Shown piece by piece: positions 24,880 to 61,292 of a stretch of DNA of 64,000 nt (its first letter is position 1; every line of letters begins with the position of its first letter). The position numbers and the translations under genes are program-made. This stretch comes from Perna viridis (Eukaryota), in contig CM074520.1 in NCBI GenBank assembly GCA_037379345.1, forward strand, positions 5,642,001-5,706,000, written 5' to 3'. The notes under the pieces are model-generated. The model saw only the letters and a list, made by a program, of their open reading frames with translations, had not been told where the DNA came from and made no database searches.

Positions 24880-25992
24880 TTGAATTGGAACCATCCAGAG
24901 ATGACGGTGGACAAGGCACAGAAATCACTGCATCTATCCATTAGCTCACCCGACATCACAGCGTATTCTACGGCTAATCTGAACTTTTCCATGGAAATCA
25001 ACCCAGATAGTCTAACAAACGATACCGAAATTGGTGAACTGATTCAAAATATTGTTTTAAGCAGTGACGATAACATATCCGATTTCGATGACGCTATGTC
25101 AACAGATTCGGACAATGAAAATGTTCCCGAAATTGATTATCAAGAAGAACTTCTTTCGCGGTGGTATTACTACGCAAGCTTTGTGTACCAGAAAGATTTA
25201 TCGAACAGAGAGATCGATGGTTGTGAGAACCCCGACGCATCACAACTAGTTGGCGGAATTATTAACACAACAGAAACAGACTCCCCGAGGGACAGTGATA
25301 CTACATTTGCAATTGATGACACTTGTGACAAACCGAACCGCCCAAATTCAGAAAATAGCAGCATTGAACAACAAGTTACAGACGATTTGTTATCAAAGAC
25401 ACACTATCTGACGTTGGACTTTTCTGAACTTGTCAACGAGTCTTCCGTTTCCGAAATAAAAAACTTTGTTCCTAGAATGACAGATGACAATGAACCGTGT
25501 GTTGGAAATACAGAACACTGTGATCCGACACTGAATTCTGCAGATGTCAGTGCAGATCCTATTTTTTTATCTTGTGGAGATCGTACAATGTCAGTCATTG
25601 CATCCTCTTCTATATGTATGGATGAATTTAGTCTTGCAGATTCCGAACTAGATCCAAGTGAATTGATGCCTAATAAAAAGGTACACATTCTTCGACGAAC
25701 AACGACTTTATACAATCTTAACGCTACCAATCATCAGCCTATTACTAATTCATCAAAGACTTCAAATCGTTTGTTAAAAGCAATGAAATCTGTCAAACGA
25801 AGCCTGACTCCTACACGGAGGGTGAACAGTAGATTGTGTAACGATAACGATAGCGACGGACAAGAGCTTGCATCTCCATCTCAAGATATACAGTTACACG
25901 ATAGGCGTACTGTAGTAAGAAAACTCAGGAAGTTTAGGGACAGTTTCCGGCGTAAAGACAAACACCGAATACAGACTCTGGCTATGCTTTGA
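24880..25992 (+). CDS. Cluster gene A: uncharacterised acidic, disordered protein with conserved C-terminal helix and TLAxL end (terminal exon)
   Basis: 1.1-kb ORF after the acceptor tttttgcag (24879). Ends DRRTVVRKLRKFRDSFRRKDKHRIQTLAML. AATAAA at 26064. Possible in-phase upstream exons 24183-24227 and 24657-24731 (uncertain); otherwise start at ATG 24901. Confidence 0.85.
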   Translation: MNWNHPEMTVDKAQKSLHLSISSPDITAYSTANLNFSMEINPDSLTNDTEIGELIQNIVLSSDDNISDFDDAMSTDSDNENVPEIDYQEELLSRWYYYASFVYQKDLSNREIDGCENPDASQLVGGIINTTETDSPRDSDTTFAIDDTCDKPNRPNSENSSIEQQVTDDLLSKTHYLTLDFSELVNESSVSEIKNFVPRMTDDNEPCVGNTEHCDPTLNSADVSADPIFLSCGDRTMSVIASSSICMDEFSLADSELDPSELMPNKKVHILRRTTTLYNLNATNHQPITNSSKTSNRLLKAMKSVKRSLTPTRRVNSRLCNDNDSDGQELASPSQDIQLHDRRTVVRKLRKFRDSFRRKDKHRIQTLAML

Positions 25993-30259: not shown

Positions 30260-31983
30260 TCATAATGTTGCGAGTGTGTGAAGTCGTCGTAAGTCTTTTC
30301 GTCGGAAACTTTCCCGAAACCTGTGTAGTTTTCTTGCCACGGCTTGTTTGTCGTGAACCTGGAAACCTGATATTGCGCATTTCTTTGATGTGGGTCTTAC
30401 ACAGAACTCTTTGGGATGTTGTAAAGCATCGGAGTGGGCAATATCACTTTTAGTTTTTTTCTTCAGTCCTTGTTTCACGTCTTTAATCGCTTGAACGAGC
30501 TTAGGGAGCTTTGCTGAGTACTTTTCCTTTGCATGTGCCACTTTCTCCGTACACACAGGGAATATATCGTTTTCTTTGGTTTGCGCTATAGTCTGTAGAG
30601 CATCTGTTTCTATACCGACCACGTCTTGGCGAAATGTAGATGGCGCAATCGTAGACAAAAAGTCAACAGATAAACATCGGTTGTCGTCGTTCTGGTAACG
30701 CCGGAGATAATTCCTATGAAGAACAGTATCGCGATTTTCATCGATTGACCATGTTTCGGCTTCGGTCAAATTCGTTTTCCCCCTGGTACTTATTGACCAT
30801 TTTGAAAAATCAAGTTTGTCTTGCACCATTGTCGAAGAAGCACAAGGAATAAAATCATGTATCATTGTAGATTGAGCCCGTGGAGTTTTTACGTTCGTGC
30901 TAATGTCATCTGAGAGCATAGTTTCTCCTGAATAATCGATCATTGTAGAACTTGCCATTGGAGCCAATCTTAGTTTAGCAGGCGGCAATTTTTTCGAGCC
31001 ACTGAATAGCGATCGTCTAGCGTTTTGTCGTCTGAATGTGCCCCTGCAAAATTGAGCTCCACCTTTGGCTTTACTATCAAGACAATCTTCGGCTTCAGGT
31101 CTTCGTGTTAATATTATTTCTGTCGATTTGACCAAGTTATTGTCTTGCGTGAAATCAGTCCAATCATTCAGTGACGTGTTGACAAGGGTGTCTGACTCAT
31201 CAAAAGACATGCTCAAATTAGTGACTCTTGTGAGAGACTCAATTTTAGAGACGGATGATGGTGTCACTGGACAAGGACTATTCTTTGCCATCTGTAAAAG
31301 AAATACAAAAATGTATTAAAGAGTGTAAAAGTTTAAGACAAAGACACGTTACAGTAACGAGCTTCTACAACTTAACTGTTTATAGAACCATTTGATAAGT
31401 CCTATTTATGTCAACGTATCTTTTTAAAGGCTTAGGGTTTCTTTGGGGGGGATGGGGGGAGAGGGAGGTCTTTTTTTGTCGATCAGTATCAAAAGGACTG
31501 GCGTTTTTTGTTTTTTGTTTTTTTGTTTTTTTGTTTGTTTTTTTTTTTTTTTTTTTTGTCATTGTACAAAATCTTGACTAGAATATTATCTATCATATAT
31601 TTTTACTATCGTTATTGTATACTTACCACATTATAAAATAGTTGTGATCTTGGCCTCGATTTCAATGCCTTAGTAGAATTTTTCAGCGCTGGAAAAGAAT
31701 AAATTGTTATACCTTAAAAGCATATTGCAATTTTTTTTTAAATGTCTAACGTTTGAACAAAGAGCATGAAGAATATGGCTTGTGAAGTGAAACACGACAA
31801 CTAAATCTTGTACGACTAATAAAATAATACATTATCGGTTTTCAGGATGATTGAATAAAAAAATTCAGATATACGTTTGAATAAAAACAGATGTTTGAAC
31901 AGAAATTTACATATACGCAACGTGTAGTATAAGAGTAACTAGATCTAAGAAAACTTACCTTTTGGGCTGAATGAGAGCTTCAT
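30260..31983 (-). CDS. Cluster gene B: uncharacterised disordered protein, about 372 aa
   Basis: Exons 31983-31959 (MKLSFSPK, phase 1, GTAAGT), 31688-31627 (phase 0, GTAAGT), 31291-30260. Ends DKQAVARKLHRFRESFRRKDLRRLHTLATL. Three STM[IV] motifs. TATAAAAA at 32085-32078; AATAAA at about 30177-30172. Confidence 0.88.
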
Positions 31984-35500: not shown

Positions 35501-35504
35501 TCTT

Positions 35505-36583
35505 TAGCTGTGTATAATGATGTTTTGGGGCCTGTTCTTTCGTTGTAGCTGTGTATAATGATGTTTTGCGTGTATAATGCTGGTTTTGGGCCTGCTCTTT
35601 CGCTGTAGTTGTGTATAATGTTGTTTTGGGGCCTGGTCTTTCGCTGTAGCTGTGACGTTTTTGGGCCTGCTCTTTCGCTGTAGCTGTGACGTTTTTGGGC
35701 CTGCTCTTTCGCTGTAGCTGTGACGTTTTGGGGCCTGCTCTTTCGCTGTAGCTGTGTATAATGACGTTTTGGGGCCAGCTCTTTCGCTGTAGTTGTGTAT
35801 AATGTTGTTTTGGGCCTGCTCTTTCGCTGTAGCTGTGACGTTTCGGGGCCAGGTCTTTCGCTGTAGCTGTGTATAATGCTGGTTTTGGGCCTGCTCTTTC
35901 GCTGTAGCTGTGACGTTTTTGGGCCAGCTCTTTCGCTGTAGCTGTGACGTTTTGGGGCCAGGTCTTTCGCTGTAGCTGTGACGTTTTGGGGCCAGGTCTT
36001 TCGCTGTAGCTGTGTATAATGACGTTTTGGGGCCAGGTCTTTCGCTGTAGCTGTGACGTTTTGGGGCCAGGTCTTTCGCTGTAGCTGTGTATAATGATGT
36101 TTTGGGGCCTGCTCTTTCGCTGTAGCTGTGACGTTTTGGGGCCTGCTCTTTCGCTGTAGCTGTGACGTTTTGGGGCCAGGTCTTTCGCTGTAGTTGTGTA
36201 TAATGTTGTTTTGGGCCTGCTCTTTCGCTGTAGCTGTGACGTTTTGGGGCCAGGTCTTTCGCTGTAGCTGTGACGTTTTGGGGCCAGGTCTTTCGCTGTA
36301 GCTGTGTATAATGATGTTTTGGGGCCAGCTCTTTCGCTGTAGCTGTGACGTTTTGGGGCCAGCTCTTTCGCTGTAGCTGTGACGTTTTGGGGCCAGGTCT
36401 TTCGCTGTAGCTGTGTATAATGTTGTTTTGGGGCCAGGTCTTTCGCTGTAGCTGTGACGTTTTGGGGCCAGGTCTTTCGCTGTAGCTGTGACGTTTTGGG
36501 GCCTGCTCTTTCGCTGTAGCTGTGATGTTTTGGGGCCAGGTCTTTCGCTGTAGCTGTGTATAATGATGTTTTGGGGCCAGCTG
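35505..36583. repeat. Homogeneous minisatellite of interspersed 34-bp and 41-bp variants
   Basis: gttttggggccaggtctttcgctgtagctgtgac (34 bp) and a longer variant containing tataat (41 bp), about 29 units. Confidence 0.95.
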
Positions 36584-36917
36584 TTTTGATTTGTTGTTTA
36601 GTTGGTTGGCTGCCTGTTTTTTGCTTGTCATGGACAAAATCTGAATTAAATAAACAGTAACATCAATAACATGACGAGTACTTCAGCTTCGTAGTTCACG
36701 ATTAGAAGTTTAAGAGCTTTTCATGTGAAAGCATTGTAGATCTACGAAACGAATTGTTATATTGATTTGTCGTATAAGTACATGTATTGTACAAGTAGCC
36801 TTGTTGTGAAACTCTTGTTATTCGAGGAGAGAAAACACAAATTTGTTTTATATTATTTATTTACAGTGTTGTAAACATAAAATAGCACTATATTGTGAAG
36901 AGAATTTGTTACAATGG

Positions 36918-38342
36918 TCATAGATTCGCTAAAGTACAAATGTCAGCAGACTTGTTGCTCCAGCGCTCTTGAAAATATCGAATTTTCCTAATCATTTCCA
37001 CCTTTTCTAAACCTGACAAAGCCAGAAAGGGGTTGCTATTCTTTTTCTCTACTGTCCCCCCTTGTTTATTTTTCCTAGAAAACAAGCGCCTAAGTCTGGA
37101 AATTGGTTTAGAACGAGCATGCGTGGTCGTTTCTTTTCCGGGCTTTTTGTTGTTCAAGTTCAAACTGCCTTTCAACTTCTTCGGCGTAAGACGGAGCTTA
37201 GCTCTGGTGCTTGTTCTTGGGACTCCCTTGTGTGTATTGTAAAAAGATGTTTTTGCATACGCAACTTCGTCTACGACTTCTACACTGACAATGTCTCTGG
37301 TGCTACAGTAACCAATCGATGATAACATTCCAATTTCGTTCTGTGCAATTTCTTGCTTACTAGAGAGAATGTCTTCTTCGCATGAACTCGAGTCATCGTT
37401 GCGACTAATGACGAAAGTCTGGTTGATCTTGGGTCCTTGGAGTGAAGTACATGGAATGCTGTCATTTTGAATGGATGAAAAGCTTTCACTTATACCCGAA
37501 TCTTTTCTACTAAGAGTCATCATTATTTGGTTCTTGTTTTCACCAGGAGATTTTATCATGGTAGAGCATGCTACCGGTTTCGTAATATTTGACTTTCTTC
37601 GTTTGGAGTATCTACCTTGTCTGTTGCGGTTTCGACTTTTTGGAGTATGGTTTTCTTCACATCCTACAACTATACGCTCAAGGATATCTAGATCGATGCC
37701 ATCGAAATTAGTAAATGAATCATCAATATTTGAGTCAAAACTCGCACACTTATTAATTTGCTTGATTTCCGTTGGGTATCCAATCGGTACACAATGTGTC
37801 TCATCTCCAGATGACGAAGAACCAGAAATATTGTAGGAGTCTGAACAAATACTGTCGTTGTATAGGTTGAAGAAATCGTTTTGGCAGTCCTTCGCTTGTA
37901 ATATTGATAAGGATCCGAGTCTTGGAAGTTTCATTTTCTTTGAGGGCCTTTCTACGTCCAACTGATCACTCATCTGGAATTAAAAATAAATGTGATGGTT
38001 AACCGATAATTTATTATGAAACCAGTATATAAATTTATACTAATGAATCGTATAGATGATACATGGAATCAAGAAGTGTATATTAAATGTGCTATATAAA
38101 AATTTGAATTTAGAAATTCCCATATTTTTTTTAACTATATAACAAATGTAATGTTACTGATGGTACTATTATATTAGTATCACGAAACAATCTGGTTGTT
38201 ATCGAAACATTTTACATCTTTCAGCATTTTGCATAAAGACAAAGGATGCTGTTTGCGCAAATTAGAAGTATACAGAAGGTTTAACTGTATTCCATACCTG
38301 ATAAAGTACACGAACCACCTGGTCTGCTTTCACAATCTCCAT
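36918..38342 (-). CDS. Cluster gene C: uncharacterised disordered basic protein, about 366 aa
   Basis: Coding exons 38342-38298 (MEIVKADQVVRVLYQ, phase 0) and 37973-36918. Non-coding first exon ends at 38575; TATAAAAA at 38646-38639. Ends EKVEMIRKIRYFQERWSNKSADICTLANL. Contains PVACSTMI, FYNTHKGVPRTSTR and DSGISES. Confidence 0.86.
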
Positions 38343-43120: not shown

Positions 43121-46100
43121 CTACAGGTTAGCAAGGGTGTGGATCTGTGTTGTGTCTTTCTGACGGAAGCTCTCGCTAAAACGACGCAACTTCTTGGCAA
43201 CAGCACGCTTGTCCATGAGGTGGACCTCGGGTGAAGGAGTCATAAACAGCTTCTTCTTGGTAACAGGTTCACTGTGAATAGATGATGGTCTACGCTGGGG
43301 TGTAGATGCAATGTTCTCGGTGCTCTTAGGCTTGCGGCGGAAACGGAACAACTTCCAGAGTGGTATGATGCCCTTGGGTTTCTTGAAGAGTTGGTTTTCT
43401 TTTGGTGATGTTGACCGGACTGATGAAGGCGGTGCTGGTGGCATACACTGGATCTCGGTCTCACTGACTGGGCTGGCCCTGGATGAGTAAGGTGAGTTGT
43501 TAGGAGCAAAAACACCAGTACTGCTGTAGCTGTGTGGACTGTCAGTGAGGAGGGAGTCAATCATGGCTTGAGTGTTGTGTGTCTCGTTACTGTTTGGTGG
43601 ACTGGTGTGACTACCACTAGAACTAGACTTGCCTGGGATGGCTGGACGATCATCTAGGGATGATGAGTGGGTACTAGCTGAAGAATTGGGAACACTCTGG
43701 ACATTGTCATTCTCTGAAGTCAGGACGCTGACCATGTCTGGCATTGATGCTCGGCGGGCTTCCATGGAACTACCACTGGACTTGTTACCATTCAGGTCAG
43801 TACGAGTGCTGGTACGTGGCAGGGTCTTTGCCTTGTTGTAGAAAGTGACTTCTTCGTACAGGCTGTCAGTGACAAGGTCTTGCTGCTGGGTGGCAGGTAC
43901 AATCATGGATAGGGTGTCATTGCAGGTAGTCTCGACTAGACTGGTACCACAGCTGGATGGAAGGACTTTCTTAGTAGGCAGAGGTGGCTTGCTGGAGATC
44001 CTGTTGATGTTGCGGTAGTAGGATTCTTCAAGTGGCAGCTCTTCAGAACCCTCTTTGATGGACCAGCAGTACACAGAATCCATGTCATCAGTAGAGGAGT
44101 GTGGTCTACAGGATGACGAAGTGGGATCTTCAATCATGGTAGAGGAAGCCCTAGGTATGGAACTGGTACGGTGCTTACTACTGCCACTGCTCTGTGATGA
44201 TGGAGAGAAGTCTTCTATCATGGTTGATGATGCCTGAGGGATGGAGATGCTGCGACGACTACCCTGTGATGAACTAGTACGGTTACGCTGAGCACGACTG
44301 ATGCGCTTTACCCTGTGATGGCGAGGTGATGGTGATGAGCAGTTGGAACTGGTAGAGCGAGTGCTAGAACGAGGTGGTGGTGCAAAACCAGGTGGGATGT
44401 ATTCGGACTCACAACCAATGACTTCTCTAGTGAAGAGCTCCTCAGTGTCAGCTGCAGTGTTGTTGTGGTAGATTACTGGTGTGTTGGTAAGGCGGGCTGT
44501 CATGTTGTTAATCTTGGTCTGACGGTCAACAGTGAAGTCACCATAGTAGTGGAGTCTGGAAAGCAGCTCTTCTTGACGGTCGTCTATGTCTGGTACACAC
44601 TGGTTGTCGTCTGAAGACTCTGACTCAGTAGACCTAGGGTAACCGCTGGAACCATTACTAGCATTGCTGATGTCAGAGGATGATGGCTCTGGTTGGTCGA
44701 TGTTTGGTACCAGGTTGGTTGGTGAGACTGGCTTTGGTGATGGTATGTAGTTACTGTTATTGTCGATGATCAGGGTCATAGCCGAGTCTTCGTAAATGCT
44801 CTCGCTGCTGAGTGAGTTGATGGAAACCAGAGGCCCCTGAAGCATCTTCTGCAGTAGGACATCTTCGTCACAGGAAGTGGTGTCTAGGCAGGTGATGGCT
44901 GGTGTGTTACGCTGGAGGAAGGAAGGAGTTGGTGGATTGTTAAGCTGCTGGTTGGTTGGGTACTCGCTTGGTTCCAACCCAATATCTGAGATGAGGGAGT
45001 TGAACTTCTGGTTTATCTCATCTATATCTGTCTGCAAGGCAGTCTCTTGTCGTTTAATGGCTAACTGTAAAATAAGATTAATATTGGATTAGATATAAAG
45101 AAACTTTAAAAGATCACATTCTTAATTTAAGTTCTGAATTTCTTTGAAATTCAGATCAATTTTGGTATACAGACATCTTACAAGCATTCAATTTGCTACT
45201 ACAAGTAAATATTAATGTAGATGAATATTCTTCATTCAGGTCAGTTAGTTTGTATTATAAAAAAATTTAAAAAATATTATTATAAGAAATGAAATACAAA
45301 TAAAATAACTATACATAAATTTGAAATACAAATACAACATGTATTCAATTATACTAAAAAATCACCATATTTTTATGTACATGTAGTTCACAACATTTTT
45401 TTGTATTTTAAACTCAATTTGGACATAATGCCCTGATCAATAGTGTAAGATGAACCTACTAAGTCATTCCTGTACAAGTTTATAAGGATTGATATTTTGT
45501 AATAGAACATTTTTATACCTAAAGTGAAGACCATACACTACTCTTCTGATATATCAAGAAGAAACATCAAAGAAATAAACTATTGAAGTTTCTGGTTCTA
45601 ACTATGGCAGGTAAGTAGAAAATTCAATTTTTGCCTCTGCTGAATAAAAGCTTTCAATAAGACTTCTACAGGCAAGATTCATGACCATCTTTAATATTTT
45701 TAAATCTTGGCTTTTATATCGAAGTAACACTTAAAACCAAACGTGTGTAATTCAGGTAAGATATGGCCATATGACCTTTATATACTTTTAAATAAAATGT
45801 CCATCAAATCTCATCTCTATAATACAAGGGATGAAACTCTTAATATATACCCAGGTTGCTTGGCAAGATAACTCCTTAGTTGTAAAGAGATAAAGGCAGT
45901 GTCTGAACCAGAAATTTCATTTAACAAAATGAAGTTAATTGACCTACCATATCAGCTTGAAGCATGAGGTACATCTCTTCATGATCAAGATGGTCTGAAA
46001 CATCGGAGTCCATACCAGTTTCCATCCAGTCTGAAAAACATAAGGGAGCATAACATAAGTCTAGAGTCACAATCAAACAAGTTGTACTAGATGTTACAAA

Positions 46101-46642
46101 AAATAACAACGTTATCCCAACTGCTACATTGTAGGACTAGTCATTTGTACAATTTGATATAGTTGCATGCACTTTACATGCCATCATACAAGTATAAATC
46201 AGAAATACCATCATTCTATCAAAGCAGATATCAATGTCCACACAGCATCTAAATCACAGTTTGTCAACAGAGTGTAATCTAACATTACATTTATTGAGAA
46301 TTTATGTGTTGTAGTTTATTATAATTCTCATGAATTTTTAAACATGTTATAAAATGTAATTGTTAAATAGTTAATGGAGTTTGATCCCTAAATTAACAGC
46401 TTGCAAATATCTGATTTATGGCATTTCATCAAGATAGAAACTTTTATGTTTTTTATCTAAATTTTCTCTGGTTAATGTAAAAAAATAATTTCACATCAAA
46501 TTAGTAATAATGCATAATGCAATACAATTGCTGTAGAAATTTTGAAGGAAGTAGAACCATTAAATTAAGACATACCCCAAAGAGAGATATACATCCTCGG
46601 AGATGATCCTAAAGAATCACTTGAATATTCATAAAAATACAT
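43121..46642 (-). CDS. Cluster gene D: longest paralog, about 697 aa, Ser/Pro-rich and disordered, with an N-terminal helical/coiled-coil segment
   Basis: Exons 46642-46576 (phase 1, GTATGT), 46030-45948 (phase 0, GTAGGT), 45064-43121, all in frame: MYFYEYSSDSLGSSPRMYISLW|DWMETGMDSDVSDHLDHEEMYLMLQADM|LAIKRQETALQTDIDEINQKF.... Ends DKRAVAKKLRRFSESFRQKDTTQIHTLANL. TATATAAAAA at 46708-46699; AATAAA at about 42530. Confidence 0.92.
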
Positions 46643-49600
46643 TTGGTGTGTAATATCCAAAACTTATTTAAAACAAAAACTTGACCCATGAACCCTTGTT
46701 TTTATATATGGTCCCATAGTTTGTGAACCATTATATCCATCTGCTGTTCACACAGCCAGCAGATTGTCTAACACCTTTTCCAGTATAATTTCATACCTTA
46801 AATCCACTTAATTTTCAAATTATCTGATGTTAAAAGTTACACCAATTAAAAAAAACACTAGTTTGTAGTTCTCATACCACTGTAATATTAATAACCCATT
46901 CATAGCCTAACTGATCTAATTGTCAACTAATTGACCACACTTCTGGGAGAATACAAAAGTTAGCCCTAATCCTATGAAGTGTGATGGCATCCATTAATTT
47001 TGGTGTCAAACCTTTTTTACCCCCATTTACAGTAACAGTTTAGGTGTTTGTTTAGTTTCTGTCAATATGCTAATCAGAGGAACTCTTTTGTAAAGAAGGG
47101 TGGAATATTACTGGTTTTCAGATTTCAATTTGATGTATTGCCTCAGAGGTTTTTTTTCTGAAGAGTTTTATCCCCTTAACAATACTTTAACCACTACTAT
47201 TTACATAGCAGTGTTTGGTGTTTTAAGACACACAAAAGATTTCTAAAAGCTGTCAGCTAAATTGTCACTATCCTTTGTGTTCTGGTAACTTCTTAATTTA
47301 AGGTGCTGTGTCTACTAAAACTTTTATTCTTTTCTATAAATTACAACAGAAGGTTCAGTAAGGCATTTTTTCATGATATAAAAAAAAAATACAGACAGAC
47401 AGATGCAGCAGAAAATTGTTGTGGACTAGTAACACTGTTACATAATGTTCCATAGTATTGAGTAGTATTGAAATTAAATACAAGTTTACAATCAATATTG
47501 TCCCATTGAATGAATGGAATTTGATATAATTTCTCAATTTATTGAAATTAAATACAAATTTACAACTAGTTTCAAGCTGTTTCTAAACCAACATTTCATA
47601 TAATGTTTTGAAAGATTACAATGGATTACATGTTAACAATCTGTTTAAAATCTTTCATTGACCCAGTTCTGATGTAATTGTGGAAAACTTTTTAATAAAA
47701 AATGTCTACAATCTGTTGATATTTCCACAGTGGGGATGACTTTGTTTGTATTAGGCTAAAGTTGGACTGATAAATTCTTACACATCATTTAATCACATTT
47801 AACTTTTAATGAATGAGTAAATCAAAGTCAATTTGTTCTGGAATTTTCTCCAAAGGGATGTCTTCTAATTTAAATTTTAAATAAGGTTAGCTTATTTGCA
47901 TAGTATTATTAGCTGTATGATAAACTACAGGAGACCAAAGAAAAAACTTCCTGTCACAGGACTTAAAAATACTATGAAAGTACTTCATACCAGGGATGCA
48001 GGACAGATGTTCACCAAATCTGCACTTTGAATGGACTTATTTCAAGGTGACCCAATATTGCTGAGTCAACAGAAATGCTAAGCAGGTGAAAATGATATGT
48101 GGCTGGAAATTGTCAATGGACAAAGGACATGGGCACAAGACACACCTTATTGATGAATATTTGATGAAGTCCATGACAATTCCTTCACCCTAACACAAAT
48201 ACTGATAGACCATTGGCGGATTAAAAAAAAATCTTAAATTCAGATTTGCTTAACTTACGATCACTAGAAATTGAAGATTTGAGGAAAAACTCAGGATTTG
48301 GGGAAATTATCAACCTGATTTTTGTTATAGTATAAAACCAAGGCCAGGTATGATTTGTTTCCAGAAACCTAATAGAGTTGGAATTTGGATAAAAGTCCTA
48401 GTACAATTATCAATAAATGTTAGTCTCTATAAAATTTGGAATAAAGTCAACACCATTAAAGTAATTTCATACAAATTGATTTCTTGAATTAAATCTTGAG
48501 TAATATATCTTACACATTTACAATTAAGATAGAATTTTAGATAGAATACAAACAAATGCTGGAAATTTACCAAATTTTATAATAATAAGACTTGCATATT
48601 TCTACATTTAAATACTTTTCCTATTTCATAACTTTATGAAATAAAATGAAGTAAACTTGCTCTACCTGTAAACTGTGCCACCAGCCTCTGCATCTATTAG
48701 TAATTAATGTGATGTTGTTCCTTTGAAATTTACCCAAGGTATGATAGTTTTTACAGGTATGCACAGGTAAGTTACAGGTAAGAGTCAATTGGATGTTAAT
48801 TGTTTTCTCTTTCATCCTTAATTAACTGATGAAATATTTAAACTCAGTAAATTCAGTAGCCCTATAATCTCTCTCTAATAAAAATTTCAGGGGGGTTTAA
48901 TTGTTTAACAAGTGTCTGTTAAATTCATTAAGGTAAAGATGTGACTTAACCATGCTGAGACAAATAATTAGATAACTGGACTTTAGATTATAGATATGGA
49001 AATATCATTCTAAAATTTTATAACTCATCACTTATGCATTTGGTTGATGTATGAATTTGAAATTTTATTCAAGAGGCAGAAAACAGAATACTAAGTTGAT
49101 ACAGAAGAAGAAAACCACTTAATGATCAAATGTAAGAATGAACTGCTATTAAACTAAAAATACCTTGTACAACAAAGAACAATGGATCCTGAAGGTAATC
49201 ATAAACATTGCAGCTCTCCAAAGACCTACCCAACACCATTATAATAGGCTTCTATCGCCACATTTACAATTTGTCTTCATGATGAAACATGTTATATACA
49301 GTCACATGTTTAATTAATGAGATTTGTATGTAGAGATAGGGGACTGTTAAAAAAACTAATGTAATTCCAAATCAAAACAATTCAGTAGATAAGGGACAAT
49401 ACTTGAATCTTAGCAGCTGGACACAGGTGTAATAAAACAACAGTATACTATTGTCCAGTCCTGTTGTATACATCTACTTTATCTGGGTGTTCAAACATAG
49501 TTTGTTTACATTTTGTTCTTTCCAATTGAATTAAAATTGGACACAGATTGATTCCCAATCCACTTTAAAAAGATCTAGATAATTGGATAGGTATTTTACA

Positions 49601-52600
49601 AACAAGGGTATTTACCAGGTAATTGTATTATACACTAAACCTATTGTAGTCCATTCCAATGTTTAAAGAATATTCTATTACAAATTAATTATGATATTCA
49701 GTAATTCAATCAATGTTTTAGCTGAACATATGGCATCAAAGAAATCTGGTTATTTGGCATACAATAAGTAAATGAGATGCATCTTCTAAGGCCAAGAAAT
49801 TTCCCATGAGAATGCATACCACTTTGGCATTGATTTGATAGTATTGCATCATTAGGTGTCAAATATTGTGAGAGACTGGACATATCTAAATAGGAAACAG
49901 ATGCAAAACTGTTGTCAAAAGAAATAAATGGGGATCGTGGTTTGTGGAACATCCAGTTTTTTTGGCATTTTAGAGTCATTAAAATCCCTTTATCTTTTTA
50001 GGTCTTATTTTTAAGTGCTTAAATTTATTTTTTAAGTCTAGAACATTATATTATCTCATAAACCCATCAAAAATCCTATTCTTAGTGTGATAAACTTAGT
50101 AATTATTTAACCATCAGACTCCTCAAAGGGCTAACAGGAAGTTTTTACATAAGGTTTTATTTTAAACAAATTTATTTGTCTGGTTTTTGCTTTTATTATG
50201 TCCTGTTTTTATTTCATCCCTTTGAACAACTGTTTGTATAATTATAAGCCTATTTGAACCATAAAATTGGATAAAGGAACAACTGAAATAGTTTTTTCAC
50301 TTAGACAAAAAAATTAAACCTTTAAAATCATATAATTGTGCCATAAATCACTCTTCTTTATCATAACCTTGTAGAACCCCTTTAAGTCAATGCAGACACA
50401 AACATCAGAATAATTCTATCTGATTCTGATATTATGAGAAAATTGCAATGTAAAGTTTATTATCCCAGTAATAATAATCAGATTGACCCTTAAGTAAAGA
50501 AACAATCAAATTCATTCTAAGTGATTTTCATGACATTGACTTAAAGTAAGTGTGAAGTGTTTGAGTTGCTGGGAACATTAGGTATGACCTTCAGAACAAA
50601 GGCCAAGATGTTGAAGTGACCATGATATACCTTTACAGAAACAATAAACACATTTCCCAGAAACACTCATAAACAAATTTGTTAAAAAAAAAATCAAAAA
50701 ATTGACCAGTTTTATAAATGCCATTGGCTAGTAATTCTGCATCACTTTTGAAAGACAAGTCTTAGATCATTAAGTTCAGTTTGACTAAATCTCAATTTTC
50801 CTTACAACTCCCCCCTTTTTCATGTTCAAGAGTGATCTAAATCTTCAAGGGTACGATGATACACACATCAACTCAATAAAAAAGATAGAAAGAGGAAGAA
50901 TTATGTGATGTAAATCTGACCAACCTACCAGACCTTTGCTTAGACAAGAAACCATTGTATTGTACAGTGGGCTTGTACATTTCTCTCCATTGTACAAAAA
51001 CAAAATACTGTCCTCCTCAAAGAACACTGAGCAATCCTCTTCATTACACTCAAACAGGAGCCAATTTTTCACACGATTAAAAGTTCCCTCTGCAATTTCC
51101 TTGGGTAACATTTTGCTATCATAATTTCAGTGAAATGAACTAAGACCCTGGCATGCCATAGATTATATAGGTGAACACTACTCAGTGGGTATAGAGTAAT
51201 GTTGATAGGGGCTGAGTTTATTTGGGTAAATCAGTCAATAATTACTTAATCAAGATCATGTTCTGACACCCAATAACAGGTAATGCAATGTTAATTTCAG
51301 GTAAAGTGTAGGTATATATGCACATGATTGCAATTTAATTCTTACTGATGTAAGAACAATGCATAGTTCAATTTCCATAAATAGATTTAGTGACATATCC
51401 CCAGATTTTGATTAATGCTATCTTATTCAATACCAAACAAATATTTCCCTAAGGCCTGCTCTAATTTTTGTCCAAATTATGAAAATTGTAATTATAATCT
51501 TTATTTACTCATAAACATCTTTATTTATGCACAAAACATATGTGAATTATTATTTATAGTTTACATGGTCATTGTTTCTTATAGTTTTTAACCCATGACA
51601 TAGACCATTTCAATTTGTCCAGCCTACAACCATGTCATCCATCAAGTGCATTAACAAGGCTTGTTAAAAAAATGAAATATTTCATTCAGTACTGTATCAA
51701 CATTTTTTCTCAATAATTCAACAACAGAAATTTCTCATGGAAATTATTAATTGGTCCTCAGTCAAATCTGATTAAATTTTGGTCTTTCTTTCAAAAATGT
51801 CAAAGCTCAAGATGACACTTCTGAACGAAAAAGGAGAGAAATCTTCCCAAGCTCTGATCATTCAAAAAATGAAGCATAAAAAAAAGTTTCTATAAAATAA
51901 TCATAAAATAACATTATGGGTTTAAATGAAAAATTATAGAATAAGAAGATAAAACCATAATCTGCCAATTTATGTAAATATTTTGACCAATGACACCATT
52001 GTTGACTCTTTTACAATCAAAACATTGAGATAATAACTTCATTTTTATGACACAAGTTGGACAAGGTTAGCAGATTTATGCCCCTTGTATAACATGTAAA
52101 AACAGAACCAAACAAAAATTTTTATCAATGGAAAAAATCTAATATCATAATTGTCCCAATTTGACATTTCCTCAGGATTTTTTTACAATTGTGTCAATAA
52201 AAAAAAATTCAATCTAAATAAAAAAATAAAATAATTTTCCTTATGAAACAAATTGTCTTCAACTTACCAGATAAAAAGTGCCCTTTCTCCTGTCTGCACA
52301 TGATAAACTCCTTACTCACTTCATTGTTTTCTTATCAGTTTTACATGTCAAATTCATTAATTCCTAATCATAATTGTTACAAACATGTGCAAACACTTGT
52401 TTCAAAATCCTTTCAAATGTACAACTTTATGTTGAGGTCAGAGGTGAAAGTGACATAGCAATAGCTTTGTGATCACTTAGACCAAAATAAATAGAATGGA
52501 GTTGACCACTCAACACATTGATCCACTGGTGTGTGTCTTATCAGAAGACATTCAACTGAGAAATTTCCTCACATTCACTCCCTAGACAGTTTAATTATTT

Positions 52601-55600
52601 CCTGAACACTATCATTTTCCAGTAAGAATCTACCTTAATTCCATATTTTGATATTGTATTAATTAAATAGCTGAGATTGTTTACTTGTAAACAAAATATG
52701 ATATTGCTTCATGTATAGAAAGATCATGTCTCTAATAGTTCCTAGCTATAATGAATAGTAAGGGCATCTTGACACTTGAGGACCAACAGGTAATTCTAAC
52801 TTAACTTATTGAATTATCATCAAAATTGATTATAAATAACTATTTTAACATTTGAAAAGACAAAATGGTTTAAACAAGACATTATATTACATCAGTAAAC
52901 TTTGGTGAAGAAAAAAAGCATGACATGGAATTTTTCAGATTTTCTAAAACCCCTCATAGAACCCCTTCTTTATCCAATTACAACAAAGTGGTGTCAATTT
53001 TTGTGTGTAAAATTGATTTATTTCTGCCCATTGATTGATGACCAGGTGGAGATCTTATCCAATGGTCAAACAGATCAACATCACATATAAATACAGAATT
53101 TTCACAAAAAAGTTAAAAAATAAAAGTTTATTGGCAATGAAAGAAAATTAATTTTGGAAATAATTAAAACATTTCGGTAATTATTACATTTTCAGTGAAC
53201 ATAGCATTCCATATATAAAAGTTTCAAAAAGAAGATACTGAAAGAAAACACAAATTACAAAATTTAAATAATAATAATAAAAAAAATTAAAATTAAAAAA
53301 ACAGAAAACATAATATCAAAAATTCAAACTTACATGTCATATTTGAATATTTTATCTTACTTTTTTGCTCTTTGTCCATGTCTAAGGACATCATTAAAAT
53401 AACTATAAATATAGAATGAATAAGATAAAGGAAGAAAGAAAAGAGAGTAGTACATTATGACAGAAAAATTCTGTAGTGTCCAAAATCTTAAGAAAGAGAA
53501 TCAGAGCTTAAAATGAAAACTACTTGTGAAAAGAAAACAAATCCTTGTTACATTTTCTTATTCAAGCACAGAAATCCCAATATAATGAGAAACACACTAA
53601 CATGGTTATTTACATACAAAAAAGGGGGAGGGGTGTTATTTTCACTCCTTTATTTGATTTTAACAGTTCTTAGCTTCTCACAATGAACTGTGATAAAAAT
53701 TTAACCATGATTTGGATATATCTATCAATTTGATAAAGGGCCCATAATTCAATTAGGCCCTCCAAGGGTATATTTATCTCCCAATTAGAAAGTAAATAAC
53801 AATATGTTAAAATGAGCATGGCCCTTTATTTTATAACATATCATTAAATTGAGATTTGCCAACTTCTCCAAATGTGAGAAAAGTGACCACTGAGGTGAAG
53901 GTTACTCAACCTTATGTAATACTAACCAGTAAGATTTAGTATAGCCTTAAAATTTGTTTAATCTCATGTAAGAACAGTGATAATTATAAGATTTCAATTT
54001 ATAATGTACGCAAGAAATTATATATTAGTGGGTAAAATTGATTGAATAAATATTGAAAACTTGAAAATCATTTTAACATGAATTAGAACTTTTGTTCTCA
54101 TGGGACAATTTACTCCTCTTAGAAGTATTGCAGCCCTAATGAATTGGAAAATCTTTATCATTGAAGTTAAATGGACAATTACAACACATTTGATGAGATT
54201 TTCCACCTATCAATCTTGAAGATAGCTTTCATTTATTTCTTTGATGCAAATAATATTCATGAATCTTTCCCATACAAAAGAGAACATTAAACTTTAGTAC
54301 TAAGGGATAACCTGCCTAAACGTGAATGACCTTATTACACAAAGACTTGTTGATGTTATGGAATTCATTCCTCTTAAAATAGATGTATTTTAATACAAAT
54401 GTAGTAAATTTGACCTTTGTTGTTAATGCTGACATTTGAGCCTTACACCAGTTCAGAAATGTCCCTTTACTCCTCAATTATGAAAATACTCCAGCTAAGA
54501 AGCCCACAATTTGCTGTTTAATTTTTTTCTTGATAAACCTATTTTTTATGGACAACAATGCCTTCTTTCCTCAATATCTGATCAGTTTAAATAAAGCTGA
54601 ATAAAAAGTATCCTTAATTGACCATGTATAAACTTTTCACCTTTCGGCATTTTATAGGAGACATCCCCTCTATAATTATCTGAACTTGCAATGAAAAACT
54701 GCAACATATATTAGTATATGCTTTGTAACATTGTGATAGTAATTTTGTACTGAAATACTCCTGTATCAATGATAGCAAGATCTACAACATGAGTAATGCA
54801 CCTTTTATATCTATTTCTAAATATTATCATTACAAAGGATTTGTCCATCATAAAGTCACCGAGGGATATCATTATAAAAGATATCAAATTTGACCAGCTT
54901 TAATGCCACCTAGCGATAAGGGATAAAGGTCTAAAACAACTTAAAAATAAAACAGAAACATAAGAATAGCAGCCAAGCTGAGAAAATATATCTTCTCCAT
55001 AGGATAAGCCTGACTATACAGTCAACACAGTATGGGGATATGATCGACATTAAGGACTGGTTTACAATATAAATAAATAATGCTTTTCTTTGCCACTTAG
55101 GCAAACTTATCAAAATAAAGTATAACAGGTGTGAACAACAATATGAACAATGCGGAAAAATTTATCATTTATAACACTAATGACAACTGATACTGCAAAA
55201 CATTAGCTTTAAACTGTCATATAAGCTATAAAGCTTAGAACCATTTGTTTAATTCAGAAAATTCAATGTTCATCAGAATGATTGAAATACAAGATTAAAA
55301 AGGACAAAATATATATGTGCAAACCTCTTATAGCCATTTTATATCTTGAAATTCTTCTCCAGAAACAAACCATCCCAAAAGTTGCAAAAATCTTTTTTTT
55401 TCATCTATATTTAACTGCAGTCTTTGTAAAACTAAACACCAATTTTACAATTTTTCAAAAAAAGATAAAATCTCGACTTTTTTTGCTGCAAGCAGAATAC
55501 AAGACTTCAATCATTGGGGCCAAATGTGGGGTGATTTTGTAAATATCCTTACTTTTCTTCATGCATTTTTTAAAAAAAATTTAACTTTTTTTAACCTCAT

Positions 55601-58600
55601 AAAGATGCATTGTTTATCAAAAGACTCAGAAGTTCTACTTAAATTGAAAGTCAAATTTGATTTTAAAAAAAAATCCCCATTTTGGACCCCAGTTCCAACT
55701 ACAAGGGATAAATCTTGGATAAAAGTGTAAAGAACTGAACCTAACAGATAAAATCACACACCATGACATAGCAAGGACCCAAAGGGCTTAAAGAACAATA
55801 GCATAAAAACATAGTCCAACATTGAAAAACTGTAACAATTCAAACAGATATAAACTTATCTGGAATACAATCTTTTTGAAGTTTGGATTTAAATTGTATT
55901 TAGACCAACACAAAAACACTTCCTATGTTCAAACAACAAAAGAATCTGTTACAAGACATGATTGCAATTGACCATTTAATAAGATAGGGGAAGTAACTCT
56001 CTAATTTTAGGAAATCTGTTATCTGATATCATTAATTGAGATGAGGAACAATTTAATGAAAGTGACCAATTCTACACTTTATCAAACTATCTTTTTCACT
56101 TCTCTGTTTTTTAACAGTCAGTTTGCCCCAATCTATACACTGGCTCAGAATTTAACATTTTAGTAGTAAACATTTCAATACTTGACATGTACCATTTTAT
56201 TGTACCCTTCAACCTTACAACATGAGGGCATAAAAACTGTTCAGAATAGTTACATTGTAATAGTCTCTGTAATAATTGACCCCTTTTACACTGCTCTGTT
56301 TGGACAATACAAATTTTTATTACCTCCCTTATTTTGAGTGTTTAACTTAATATCAAGTAAACATGCAATGAGCATTTAATGTCCTATTATAAAACTTGAA
56401 GTAAACTATGTTTACTGCTATTCAACAAGATCAAGTTATTATAGTGGGTACTTAAAATCCTTCACAATAACTAACACCCAAATGTTATGAAACAATAAGA
56501 TTAACCCACACCTGTCCATTTTCATAACATCCCAAGAAAGGGAATGTGGACAAAATTTTAGCTGTGTCTCTTAAATTAGAGATCACTGTACATTATAAGT
56601 GGCTGTTTTGTCAACTATTGTGAAATGGACTGTCCACCCTGGAATGATATCCCAGTATGCAAAAGGAGTTAGACATGCAACAATCGATCACCAATTATGC
56701 AGTTTTAGACATTCCAATTAAAGGACACAATGAAGGCCATCTGCACAAGAATAAATTTCATTCATGTGTGTAAAACTGTCGAGTTATAATTTTTTATATT
56801 GATTTTTGAAAAAAATGTAAAAAAAAAAGGCTGATGTGGATGACATCAAATTAATTAAAAAAGGAAGCATTCAATAGACTATTTGGATTCAGCAGATTTT
56901 AGAAATTTACATGTTTACATAAACAAGCATTAAACCATAAAAATTATTACCATAAATTGAGTAAAGGCTAAGATATAAATTTCCATATAGTTTAAATTTA
57001 AGAATGCTCAAAGAATAGTGATTTGGGAATGAAACGTTTTCTTCTATTTACATAGCTGTTCATTTCAGTAAAAAAGTAATCAATAATCATTTGAAGTCTA
57101 TTTCACCTCACTAGATGTGCAGGTAAAGAGCACACCTGCCCTGAACAGGTGAGAATGATGCATTTCATGCAAACAGACCAATTAGATCAATCTAAGCAGA
57201 AAATAGAAAACTTGGCCAAACAGGTGAAAGGGTTGAAATTAGCCAACTAGAAAATGTAAATGATATGAAAATAATCTGTCTAGATTTAATTCAATTGATC
57301 CTTGTAAATCTTGCACACATTTTAGTAGCATCACATTCATCTAAGTTGTCAACAATCTTAGTTCATGGATTTGCTTCATAGAATTTCTTAATCTGATCAT
57401 GTTCCTTTTGCCATTTTATGCGATTTATGGACCTTTTAAAAACAAATTTCACTTCAATCAGACCAACTGAATCAGAACTTTTAATTTTAGCAGGAAATGA
57501 GAAAATATAGATAAATTCACATCAATGAATTTGAAAATTGGATACAAATTGTCTTCAGATTAATTTTCAGGGACTGTTAACCATATATTTTAAACATACA
57601 TGGGAAACTATCCTGTTCAGATGTGAAGACCTTATTTTACGATTATCTGATTTAAATACAGTATAAGTCAATTTCTCAAAACTTTATATGAAATGTAAAA
57701 CTAATTATCTCCTGAACCAATTTTGTGCCTCCTTATATTTGCAATTTTCCTGCCTGTCAAAACAATCTCCCACCTATAGATTGGAACACAACATATCAAC
57801 ATGCATGTAAAATGACAACTTAGTATCACACTGGGCTCATGAAGAGCACCCTATCTCTAAAGTAAACACAATTGTTCAGTTTAGTACATATACTGTACCA
57901 AAACTTTCTAAACAGATTATTATTCATACCAACAATGAGTTTTCATTAAACCCCTTTATTAAACTAAAACATGTAAAAAATGCACTTGTTTCAAATCAAA
58001 GATGTTGGATGTACATGAATGTAAAAAAATATTTGGTTTTATTTGATGCTAGATAATTAGTTTAATGACACCTATAGTAAGCATTAACTTTTAATCTCCC
58101 TACTTCACACATGCATGAGAATCTGGGTTCACTTCTGAATGAGAATTAACTCACAGTTATCTTTAACATTTACAACTTAATACAGGGGTGATAACTAAAA
58201 TTGATACAGTTAGCCTATAATCTGTTCTGTCACCCTGATTAATTAGCATTTTTAATTAGGAAACCAGATGCAGTGACCAGATTTGATCAATTACACCATT
58301 GGTGCTGATGTGGTTCTCCTGGAAATTAAAGTGCCATCAACTTAATAGGTCATCAGAGATTTAGAATTATTTGAAATTTCAAATTACAAAACTTCTTGAG
58401 TGAAGTTTTGAATGGATAATTTACTTTAAAATAGATTTTCAAACATTTCCTCACAAACCCTAAATTTATACTGACAAAAGAAACAATACATACCATATTC
58501 ACACATATTTAAGTAAATGTGACAAAGGAAGTTGAATTCCCACAAAAGCTAATATCCTGACACCACATAGTGTGGTCACTTCAACAGTTTTTCTCAAAGT

Positions 58601-61292
58601 GACAATCTCTTTGAAAAGAACCAAGTGTCACTCAAATGTCATCACTATCAAAGCACCCAAAACACATTTATTTCTAGCTGATAATTTAATTACCTGACCC
58701 TAACACATTACCTGTATAAGAAACTTTGACCTGAACAAGTCATGTATTACCAATTAGACATTTAGTAGGCAGTAATTTGAGTGCTTATGACAGTCATAGA
58801 TCTTAGCATTTGAAAAAGTAATGATATGTGTCTTCATGGCTAATTTCACAAATGTTTCACTTTAAAGGGAAATTAAATCCAATGGGTTGTCTGGTTTTCA
58901 TTGTAAAAAATTATATTTTCCATCTGCATGAACTGACCCATGATACCATGTTTCAGTTCTTTAAAATTCACAATAAAATCCAGGTTTTATATACCTGAAC
59001 AATGAATAATTCACTGAATTATTTCTTTTTTTGAAACATGTTTATGATTTTGATCACAAGTTTTATGCTTACTTTATATGTTTTTAATGAAAGCCACACT
59101 TCTGTAATACTTTTGAAATCAAATTGGACATGGACAATTGAAGATAACATGCACTTGGTCACCAATATCATTTCTACTTAAATTATAATTATTTCTGTAT
59201 AACTTAAAACCCTTGTATATTTATATGATAACTAAGCCCATTCTGTTTCAAAATTGTTGAAAACCAATACATTTGTAATTGCTGAACTTAGAGGTGTGAA
59301 AAAACTTTTCTTTTAAATAAGAAGACATTTTCTACTTTTAACTGAAAGTACAAGCATATTTCAAGGTTCTCAGGTGATGTGAGGTTAAGACCATAAAAAT
59401 GTCTCTACATGTAAGATATGACCTGCCCTCAGAGATATAAAGGTCAGGGGACTTAACTCATTGTGTAATAACCATGTTCTTTAAGCCATTAAAACTGTCA
59501 AGTTATCCAATTTGATCAATCAAGATTTTATTTACTACAATTTTAAAATTGATATATCAGATTTTTAACAGTTATAATGCTCCTTGACATGACATATTTA
59601 TTTGAATTTAATTTGAAATGAATTGTGAAAAATAGCAGGCAATTTATCATAAGTTAGCATTAGAATTGCTCAGTGCTTGAGAACTGAGTTGAATTATTGA
59701 TTTAAATTATCATTTGATTATCAAAACTATAATACATTTGGTATTAAATAGATAATTTATCTAGTACCACTACATTTGATATACTGCCAGTAGAAATTGC
59801 AGTTTTAACATTTGAGTGCATTGTTCAAGAAACATGTTAATGCTACAGTGGTATTGTTTTCTGCAGAACATTTAAATGAGGTCTAGTTACAACCATAAAA
59901 AGGTTATCAGAATTAAAAAAAAATATATAAAATTTTAAGTATCCGAGTTATTATAAAATCTTTAAAAATAATTTTTTACAAAAGATAAATCTTAAAATCA
60001 ATATCATGTCAACTATAAAATACAAATTCCACCTGCTTCTTCCTATTATATATTAATTAGATATTTTATATGAAATCAGATATTTCCATAATCAATACTA
60101 TCTTGAAGAAATATTTTCTATCAATTTTTGACAGTTTCCTTTTTGTTTTAAAATGATCTTTTTTCTTTTAAATATAAAGTTTACACAGAAATATTTCACA
60201 TATAAACATTCTGATAAATGATGAAAAAAAAATTTACTTACAAGCTAGTCTTTGATGCATAGTAGACTGATGGCATAACTTGAACTGCATAAGGACTGTC
60301 AAACAACCACACAAGGGACAAAAGTCACAATCAATGTTATTAAGTCACAGATTTATAACAATGTCCTGAATATTTCACTATTTGTAAGTGTTAATACACA
60401 AGTCCTTTGAAGTTAAGTCACTTGGATGCAATCCAGTATTATCAATGATATGGATTGAACACTAGGATGCTTTTTGAAGATTACATCCTTGAGTTAAAGT
60501 CTATCTATATAAATGGTCCTTGGCTTGGGCTGTGATGAAAAATTGACCAAGCAAAAGTCACTATTACTTTACTATGAATGGCTTGTTTTCACAACATTCA
60601 ACTTTCACTATGAAGAATTATTATGACTGGTTGGTAAGAGCTCAGAATTAAAATGCTGTAAAAACATAACTATCTGGCTTCTTTTGTGTGATTGGATCAT
60701 GTGACATCAAAAATCATCAAGGTGTGAAATGTAAACATAGAAGTGTGGTGAAAATTACTCATCTGTGACCATCAGTTTGAAATTTTAGTGAAGATATGAA
60801 ATACTGGCTTCTGATTGGTTATTTAAAAATTGAATGACAGTTGGAAGCATTATCATTGAAATAAAAATACTTATTTTTTAAAATTTGATATTATCAAAAT
60901 AAATGAAACTAAGAACCTCTTAAAAGTTAAAAAAGTTAAATCAATTTATTTTACAGGTTTTATTCATTCAAATGATAAATATATAGAAAAAATGGGTTGT
61001 GGTGAGATCAAATCATTAAGCTTACAACAATGAATGAATAAATGTTTTAGCATACAAAGCAGCAATTTTTCACATTAATTGGTTCCTTCCCTTAACCTTC
61101 TGGGCTGAATTTGCTTTTTGGAAGTTTATTTCAAAAGAATATGTTTCCAAAGTATGAATTTAGGAAAAACATATCTTCGACTTATCATATTAGATACTGA
61201 AGTTAAATTACTAAAATAAATATATGTTTAAGCTTTAGTTAGTTTAAATTATCTTTATTTAAAATCTTGAAGATTATAAAAAATGCAAAAAA

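Follow-up and report, generated by a model that had tools for sequence, protein, structure and literature searches.

Dact (Dapper/Frodo) proteins are reported to dimerize through a zipper and to bind Dvl, PKA and PKC (PMC3141656); the boundary between their first two exons falls within that zipper, and their motif 11g lies at the C-terminus (PMC4236578). The latter report describes them as specific to chordates, Aplysia being among those searched. In Drosophila, Miranda binds the membrane via a basic-hydrophobic motif that atypical PKC (aPKC) turns off (PMC5783611) and has a PP4R3-type FxxP site (PMC7776573). The BH3 segments of the Bcl-2 field are described as four hydrophobic hotspots plus one acid, Leu and Asp being usual and Gly mostly preceding the acid (PMC9171138). 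Here we describe gene D of the mussel Perna viridis, which lies in a stretch of 64,000 nucleotides (contig CM074520.1 of assembly GCA_037379345.1, positions 5,642,001 to 5,706,000 of the forward strand; hereafter the window, to which unmarked coordinates refer), and whose protein ends in a predicted polybasic amphipathic helix followed by an invariant terminal peptide. We argue, with about as much confidence as doubt, that, rather than being a BH3 segment, this two-part C-terminus works as a docking tail that phosphorylation switches, the protein being a Dapper-like signalling adaptor.

A preliminary description of the window had singled out the helix, which D shares with three further reading frames (A, B and C), for its BH3-like spacing, and had proposed either divergent BH3-only-like proteins or another basic amphipathic docking helix, such as a calmodulin- or membrane-binding one. 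It had passed over both the invariant terminal candidate ligand and the likeness to Dact.

Results

The C-terminus of gene D

Nucleotides 43121-43225, read on the minus strand, are the stop codon and the final 34 residues of open reading frame (ORF) D, and the segment V-A-K-K-L-R-R-F-S-E-S-F is encoded at 43166-43201 of that strand, as the preliminary description had read it; its other residue readings hold as well. The elements of D that carry the argument are as follows.

43121..43144, minus strand: invariant C-terminal candidate ligand I-H-T-L-A-N-L-stop (49/49 conservation)
43166..43219, minus strand: polybasic amphipathic helix, core V-x-K-K-L-x-R-F then S-E-S-F (conservation, charge, AlphaFold2 prediction)
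43121..45064, minus strand: last coding exon, large (647 codons and the stop), rich in Ser/Thr/Pro and for the most part predicted disorder (ORF, AlphaFold2, splice joint)
44987..45064, minus strand: second half of the predicted N-terminal coiled coil, from a phase-0 acceptor 5 codons ahead of Q-E (sequence, AlphaFold2, intron comparison)
45948..46030, minus strand: small coding exon, ending within the first coiled-coil half (sequence and splice joint)
60242..60453, minus strand: exon farther upstream in D (one run has the joint 46030-60242, a second run an alternative one to 48666)

Conservation was counted in two sets. One holds 39 D orthologs, among which the D of the window and a fragment are counted; the other, of 49 members, comprises 40 D orthologs, D, the paralogs A, B, C and E, three Mytilus paralogs and the homolog P0134. 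Isoforms, P0080 (whose end is frameshifted), P0081-P0086 (paralogs with no tail, and a record that is unrelated), P0127-P0130 (allelic to B, A, C and E) and P0133 (a fused model) were left out, and the rows counted share kinship, clams being over-represented.

All 49 members end in hydrophobic(-6)-x-T(-4)-L(-3)-[AG](-2)-x-hydrophobic(0)-COOH, the last residue being L, F or M. The exposed face of the helix has K or R at all four positions in 39/39 D orthologs, and a Ser stands right after the third helix hydrophobic in the same 39. For the 18-residue helix the net charge is +7 in D; of 14 sequences considered, 13 lie at +7 to +9, and paralog C, at +4, is the exception. Both the basic face and the charge fit the second option of the preliminary description, a basic amphipathic docking helix. 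By consensus patterns, a Ser or Thr stands in a basophilic-kinase setting in 48/49 members, and 42/49 have 1-8-14 hydrophobic spacing. Because the distance from the helix Phe to the protein end varies between 17 and 21 residues in the 49-member set, helix and tail are best regarded as separate elements; on the sequences compared, the segment that they form is kept far beyond chance.

Gene D is spliced: the GT-AG joint 45064-45948 is present in contigs of 3/3 RNA-like runs and absent from the single DNA-like run, these kinds having been guessed by a tool, with no run covering the stretch registered as RNA. AlphaFold2, applied to the last exon with a 40-row alignment, places 438/647 residues below 50 in its confidence measure (predicted local distance difference test, pLDDT) and predicts confident helices at residues 2-27 (pLDDT >90) and about 160-193; a further predicted helix, 619-646, contains the polybasic segment (pLDDT 82 for 621-630 and 72 for 631-640). 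D has no hydrophobic anchor, its highest 19-residue hydropathy being 1.18. Pfam gave nothing at cut-off with whole family proteins or with their short ends, and the C-terminal profile, searched against PDB sequences, had 0 matches at E 10. In the ESM Atlas the best feature score was 0.83, for P0003, and residues 700-806 of P0055 had no usable match. In one run the last exon has 9 extra bases, inserted in frame at window position 44380.

Further conserved elements lie upstream of the helix in the same exon.

43244..43258, minus strand: [KR][KR]xLF motif (38/39 full-length orthologs)
43346..43387, minus strand: FKxP (39/39), then a second basic-hydrophobic stretch LxKLFRF[RK][RK] (38/39)
43739..43819, minus strand: RxxS[LMI]PD (35/39) and PR[ST]ST (38/39)
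44135..44239, minus strand: two PxASSTM repeats (2-4 copies of the Px[AS][SC]STM type in 39/39 orthologs, and in B, C and E too)

[KR][KR]xLF is similar to the cyclin-docking RxL motif, and RxxS[LMI]PD is of the basophilic kinase/14-3-3 type. PR[ST]ST resembles motif 5b of Dact1/3, and an STP motif occurs in 28/39 D orthologs. The FKxP of D matches the FxxP class of ligands of the PP4R3 EVH1 domain, for which FKKP is reported as an experimentally mapped example (PMC7776573).

Paralogs and orthologs

Three other ORFs of the window end in the same helix and tail as D, and a different contig of the same genome carries a fifth paralog, E (L004).

24901..25992, plus strand: paralog A, ORF of 363 residues; helix 25912-25947, tail 25969-25992; ortholog P0007 in Mytilus edulis
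30260..31291, minus strand: paralog B, ORF of 343 residues; helix 30305-30340, tail 30260-30283; near-identical record P0127
36918..37973, minus strand: paralog C, ORF of 351 residues; helix 36960-36995, tail 36918-36941; near-identical record P0129

A tree built by a quick method leaves the origin of A, B, C and E unsettled, all four being long branches. In Mytilus edulis the record of the A ortholog is equal in length to that of the D ortholog. Read cover in 4/4 RNA-like runs, none on A and B and traces on C, is no evidence on expression. Between B and C, at 35504-36631 (minus strand), a 375-codon ORF consists of tandem DNA repeat and is probably no gene. A TELO2 exon lies upstream of E (L026:8550-8906), and broken frames resembling the endonuclease and reverse transcriptase of long interspersed nuclear elements are near E (L027:4163-7615); the Mytilus galloprovincialis model P0133 joins TELO2 and E, probably through a gene-model error. 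The Mytilus paralogs P0081, P0082 and P0084-P0086 retain the STM repeats, WSI and PRTST and have lost the helix-plus-TLA tail.

D orthologs were found in Mytilus, in oysters and scallops, in the ark shell Tegillarca, in heterodont clams and Potamilus, and also in the protobranch Solemya. A homolog at greater distance is P0134, with a tail match at E 1.7. Stripped of its C-terminus it scored -19.5 bits against a whole-profile hidden Markov model (HMM), and 271/300 shuffles scored higher; beyond the tail, however, its colinear blocks chain to a score of 32 against a shuffle maximum of 14.6 (0/60 and 0/60, later 0/300). The homology of P0134 is thus supported, at the level of sequence, by the block-chain test and not by the whole-profile HMM.

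Comparison with Dact, LURAP and FAM167 proteins

A sharper version of our explanation, not exclusive of it, is that of true homology to Dact/Dapper, obscured by strong divergence, with the family acting in Wnt/planar cell polarity (PCP) signalling; we regard this as possible but doubtful. Dact1 is said to carry a PKA/14-3-3 site in its C-terminal helix. Were the homology real, the zipper would dimerize the protein, the helix corresponding to motif 11g would act as a kinase/14-3-3 switch, and the terminal peptide would serve the Dishevelled PDZ domain. The family resembles Dact in protein length (600-850 residues), in a zipper that a phase-0 intron interrupts at an identical register, in small 5' exons followed by one large Ser-rich last exon, and in a C-terminal [LV]-x-K-K-[IL]-x-R-F with a hydrophobic peptide after it at the very end. 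It differs in having none of the YPSPLHA, DSRPSS/GFY, SEYSAEC and RRWxS blocks, in a distance from the Phe to the end of 17-21 residues as opposed to 11 in Dact, and in having no Thr at -2.

Six vertebrate Dact loci were collected by the motif 4b pattern, two with the full C-terminus and one with exon 2. The likeness to Dact had been suspected early, before the patterns were written, so the tests that follow were not blind, which counts against the homology. The family core, written as [VLM]x[KR]K[FLIM]x[RK]F, has 9 matches in the 461,620 six-frame residues of all DNA collected, seven in the family and two in Dact C-termini, at motif 11g of Dact1 and Dact2; shuffled Dact ends contained it in 129 and 94 of 200,000 cases, although about 2 proteins per 20,000 would be expected to carry it near the C-terminus by chance. 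A position-specific scoring matrix (PSSM) of the untrimmed 18-residue helix places motif 11g first in Dact2 exon 4, with 12.7 bits as against 0.2 for the next segment, a score reached by 4/5000 shuffles of the same 40 residues; yet the helix of Dact1 is not significant (1.6 bits, third, 951/5000 shuffles), and an unrelated segment of locus L037 scores 11.4 with the same matrix. The terminal 7-mer ranks 5/608 in Dact2 and 10/620 in Dact1 (top 2%), and PR[TS][ST] is present in 45/49 members and in Dact1. Dact queries of this genome returned no canonical Dact (0 candidates), a weak point in favour, obtained without a positive control.

At the zipper, a phase-0 acceptor lies 5 codons ahead of Q-[DE] in D, E and Dact2, and D and Dact2, aligned without gaps over 26 positions from the acceptor onward, have 6 identities and 17 positives. 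Ahead of the intron, Dact1 motif 2a lines up, by eye only because Dact exon 1 was outside the collected loci. Against heptad-preserving shuffles, however, the zipper match to Dact2 (329/5000) is no better than that to the FAM167 locus L029 (277/5000), and the same intron is found in 6/6 intron-bearing LURAP and FAM167 matches, so that it marks a wider group at best. Motifs 4b, 2d/2e, 11b, KIKAS and MT.V occur in 0/49 members and an 11d-like motif in 3/49; in a test of the middle blocks 0/5 Dact ORFs beat shuffles, whereas both positive controls did; hhalign twice gave a probability of 0.1%; and no member matched Pfam Dapper (PF15268), though Dact controls did. Nor does any of the 49 carry the Ser or Thr at -2 of a class I PDZ end (MTTV type), so the tail falls outside the class I PDZ ligands, to which that of Dact belongs; amphioxus Dact and Dact4 are likewise described as being without such an end (PMC4236578). 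Judged by sequence, then, the family falls outside Dact membership as defined while its layout is like that of Dact. Because Pfam, hhalign and the hallmark motifs of the middle give no support, we keep the homology among the doubtful possibilities, and with equal reserve the corollary that D and its mussel paralogs form a protostome Dact/Dapper branch, which nothing but the zipper intron and the helix and tail of the C-terminus would reveal.

LURAP/FAM89 (PF14854) and FAM167 (PF11652) proteins share with D a coiled coil with Q-[DE] 5 codons past a phase-0 intron; unlike the D family they are short proteins, and D and E are outside this genome's 17 LURAP and 4 FAM167 matches. Across the loci compared (L004, L011, L012, L028-L031 and L036), the phase-0 intron 5 codons ahead of Q-[DE] (acceptor at 45065 in D) is found in D and E, in three genes each of LURAP and FAM167, and in Dact2, which hints at one zipper superfamily. 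Homology to LURAP or FAM167 by sequence was rejected (hhalign 0.2%; heptad shuffles not beaten, with 9981 and 6593 of 20000). At least six LURAP-domain genes (L005-L010) form a tandem cluster at 41.42-41.44 megabases (Mb) of G000:C6, and three of them that were inspected are without that intron. The FAM167 proteins of this genome (L028-L030) also have a basic [RKQ]-R-[FY]-S near the stop.

Discussion

The arrangement of D suggests a mechanism whose partners, kinase and localization we infer as follows. The N-terminal zipper would dimerize the protein, and the basic helix would tether it to an acidic surface, the likeliest being the inner plasma membrane and calmodulin a possible one. A basophilic kinase of the PKA/PKC type would phosphorylate the Ser of [RK][RK]F-S or of S-F and so release it, PP4, drawn by the nearby FKxP, would undo the phosphorylation, and the free end I-x-T-L-[AG]-x-L would enter a peptide-binding groove, most likely that of a PDZ domain, for example of Dishevelled. 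Dense K/R, bulky hydrophobics and an embedded Ser make up the composition of a basic-hydrophobic membrane motif, at net +7 to +9 except in C. By layout, D may be likened to Miranda and other aPKC substrates, whose basic-hydrophobic motifs are rich in K/R and Phe with an embedded Ser, Miranda being likewise a coiled-coil adaptor with a PP4-type FxxP adjacent; the basic-hydrophobic motif of Drosophila Miranda is N-terminal, whereas the tail of D is C-terminal, and its membrane role would follow by analogy.

Several observations weigh against the docking-tail explanation. A PDZ groove has to be reconciled with a tail that carries Ser or Thr at -2 in 0/49 members. The acid at i+9 is kept in 43/49, and a purely polybasic membrane helix has no need of it; an acid kept in a basic helix favours a shaped protein groove. 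Paralog C is without the Ser and has a net charge of only +4. The consensus motifs for kinases, calmodulin and cyclins are short and occur commonly, and membrane, calmodulin and nuclear-import roles are not separable by sequence.

The last of these roles leads to an explanation that we consider improbable, namely that the helix serves nuclear import, or a chromatin or cell-cycle function, in a protein regulated by CDK, Polo and PP4, and the tail is a non-canonical docking motif. Dense K/R fits a nuclear localization signal, and [KR][KR]xLF (38/39), STP (28/39), FKxP (39/39) and the 2-4 STM-type repeats (39/39) would be in keeping with such regulation, but cyclin and Polo-box consensus patterns are degenerate, the strict Phe periodicity is unnecessary for nuclear import, and P0134, by eye, has no FKxP or RxLF block. 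PP4 FxxP clients are reported to be rich in cell-division proteins (PMC7776573), which also speaks for this explanation. Also considered and dropped were the YAP/TEAD omega loop, for want of a Pro and of a second Phe, and shugoshin, the p27 KID, the PIP box and PTS1.

Less probable still, in our judgement, is the idea that the helix is a divergent BH3 and the family a set of mollusc BH3-only proteins neutralising pro-survival Bcl-2 proteins. The hydrophobic register to which the preliminary description had pointed is indeed universal (i, i+4, i+7 and i+11 in 49/49 members; V-L-F-F in A and B, M-I-F-W in C), but it is common in an unrelated helical protein as well: within the 615 residues of the TELO2 part of P0133 the relaxed BH3 rule has 4 matches, and 4/15 amphipathic 12-mers have D/E at i+9. 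Bulky residues at the Gly position and the loss of a conserved acid had been named in advance as telling against BH3, and orthologs largely depart from that picture, the small site being Ser in 42/49 members and the acid site D/E in 43/49 (Asp 26, Ala 4, Val 1, Asn 1). The best fits are mytilid D (3/49), with a small residue at h1+1, Leu, Ser and Glu, and the most distant homolog P0134, with a small residue at h1+1, Leu, Ser and Asn. Like the BH3-only proteins BIM, BAD, NOXA and EGL-1, D is predicted to be disordered and has four hydrophobics on one face with a small residue and an acid in most members, and some BH3-only proteins likewise have no hydrophobic anchor, the want of which in D would otherwise count against it. 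The genome carries Bcl-2 family genes (11 matches), as expected in molluscs (PMC11463336), and in BIM a Leu-to-Phe change is reported to keep BCL-XL binding, while Asn or Gln may replace the acid (PMC9171138).

The orthologs nevertheless lend the BH3 reading little support. Among the 39, h1 is Val in 39, h1+1 is Ile, Met or Leu in 36 and Ala in 3, h2 is Phe in 36 and Leu in 3, the small site is Ser in 39 and h4 is Phe in 38; across the 49 members Leu is found at h2 in only 9 and a small residue, typical of pro-apoptotic BH3 segments, at h1+1 in only 6, Gly at the small site in none, and Leu, small residue and Asp together in none. The acid site of the 39 orthologs is Asp in 23, Glu in 11, Ala in 4 and Val in 1, the scallop and ark-shell types having lost the acid, and an Asp-to-Ala change is reported to destabilize BH3 binding (PMC9171138). 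Paralogs A, B and C have R, R and Q at the small site and D, E and E at the acid site, Asp in A alone, as the preliminary description had noted, and E too puts R or Q at the former. The invariant exposed K/R and the invariant end are features that BH3 has no need of, and the genome's own BH3 segments (L013 and L023) have net charges of -1 and +1 as compared with +7 for the D helix. Neither the Pfam nor the PDB search gave a BH3 match, and BH3 sequence patterns are held by a review to have little predictive value (PMC9171138). A complex predicted, with no alignments, from the last 40 residues of D and a Bcl-xL-like exon (L013, 141 residues, without the last helix) scored 0.24 against a mark of 0.34, which speaks neither for BH3 nor against it. 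Because the acid is lost in places, R or Q occupies the small site, the pattern is common and non-BH3 features are fixed, we place this idea near the bottom of the scale. In the same genome, two adjacent Bcl-2/Bcl-xL-like genes (L013 and L014) lie at 18.43 Mb of G000:C11, the BH3 of L014 having Lys and Asn where that of L013 has Ile and Asp.

For the D family we found no name, no Pfam model and, among the matches listed, no paper; subscription journals and the supplements of other papers were outside the search and might hold expression data. In the literature on Dact and lophotrochozoa, only PMC4236578 mentions lophotrochozoa among the matches listed.

Across bivalves, from the protobranch to the heterodonts, the family preserves roughly a dozen short motifs, and in this mussel genome it has expanded to five copies or more. 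The BH3 idea, most exciting at first reading, is the least supported and very unlikely to hold, and the lead worth following, tentative as we hold it, is that of a protostome relative of Dact. Should the likeness be due to no more than convergence of a docking tail, the gain would be a motif family, new but modest. If D is a Dact homolog, the chordate-only origin published in PMC4236578 would be overturned and the origin of a Wnt/PCP scaffold would move to the bilaterian ancestor, a Dishevelled PDZ ligand outside class I would be revealed, and there would be a route to the long-sought fly or worm counterpart, a gap raised in PMC3141656.

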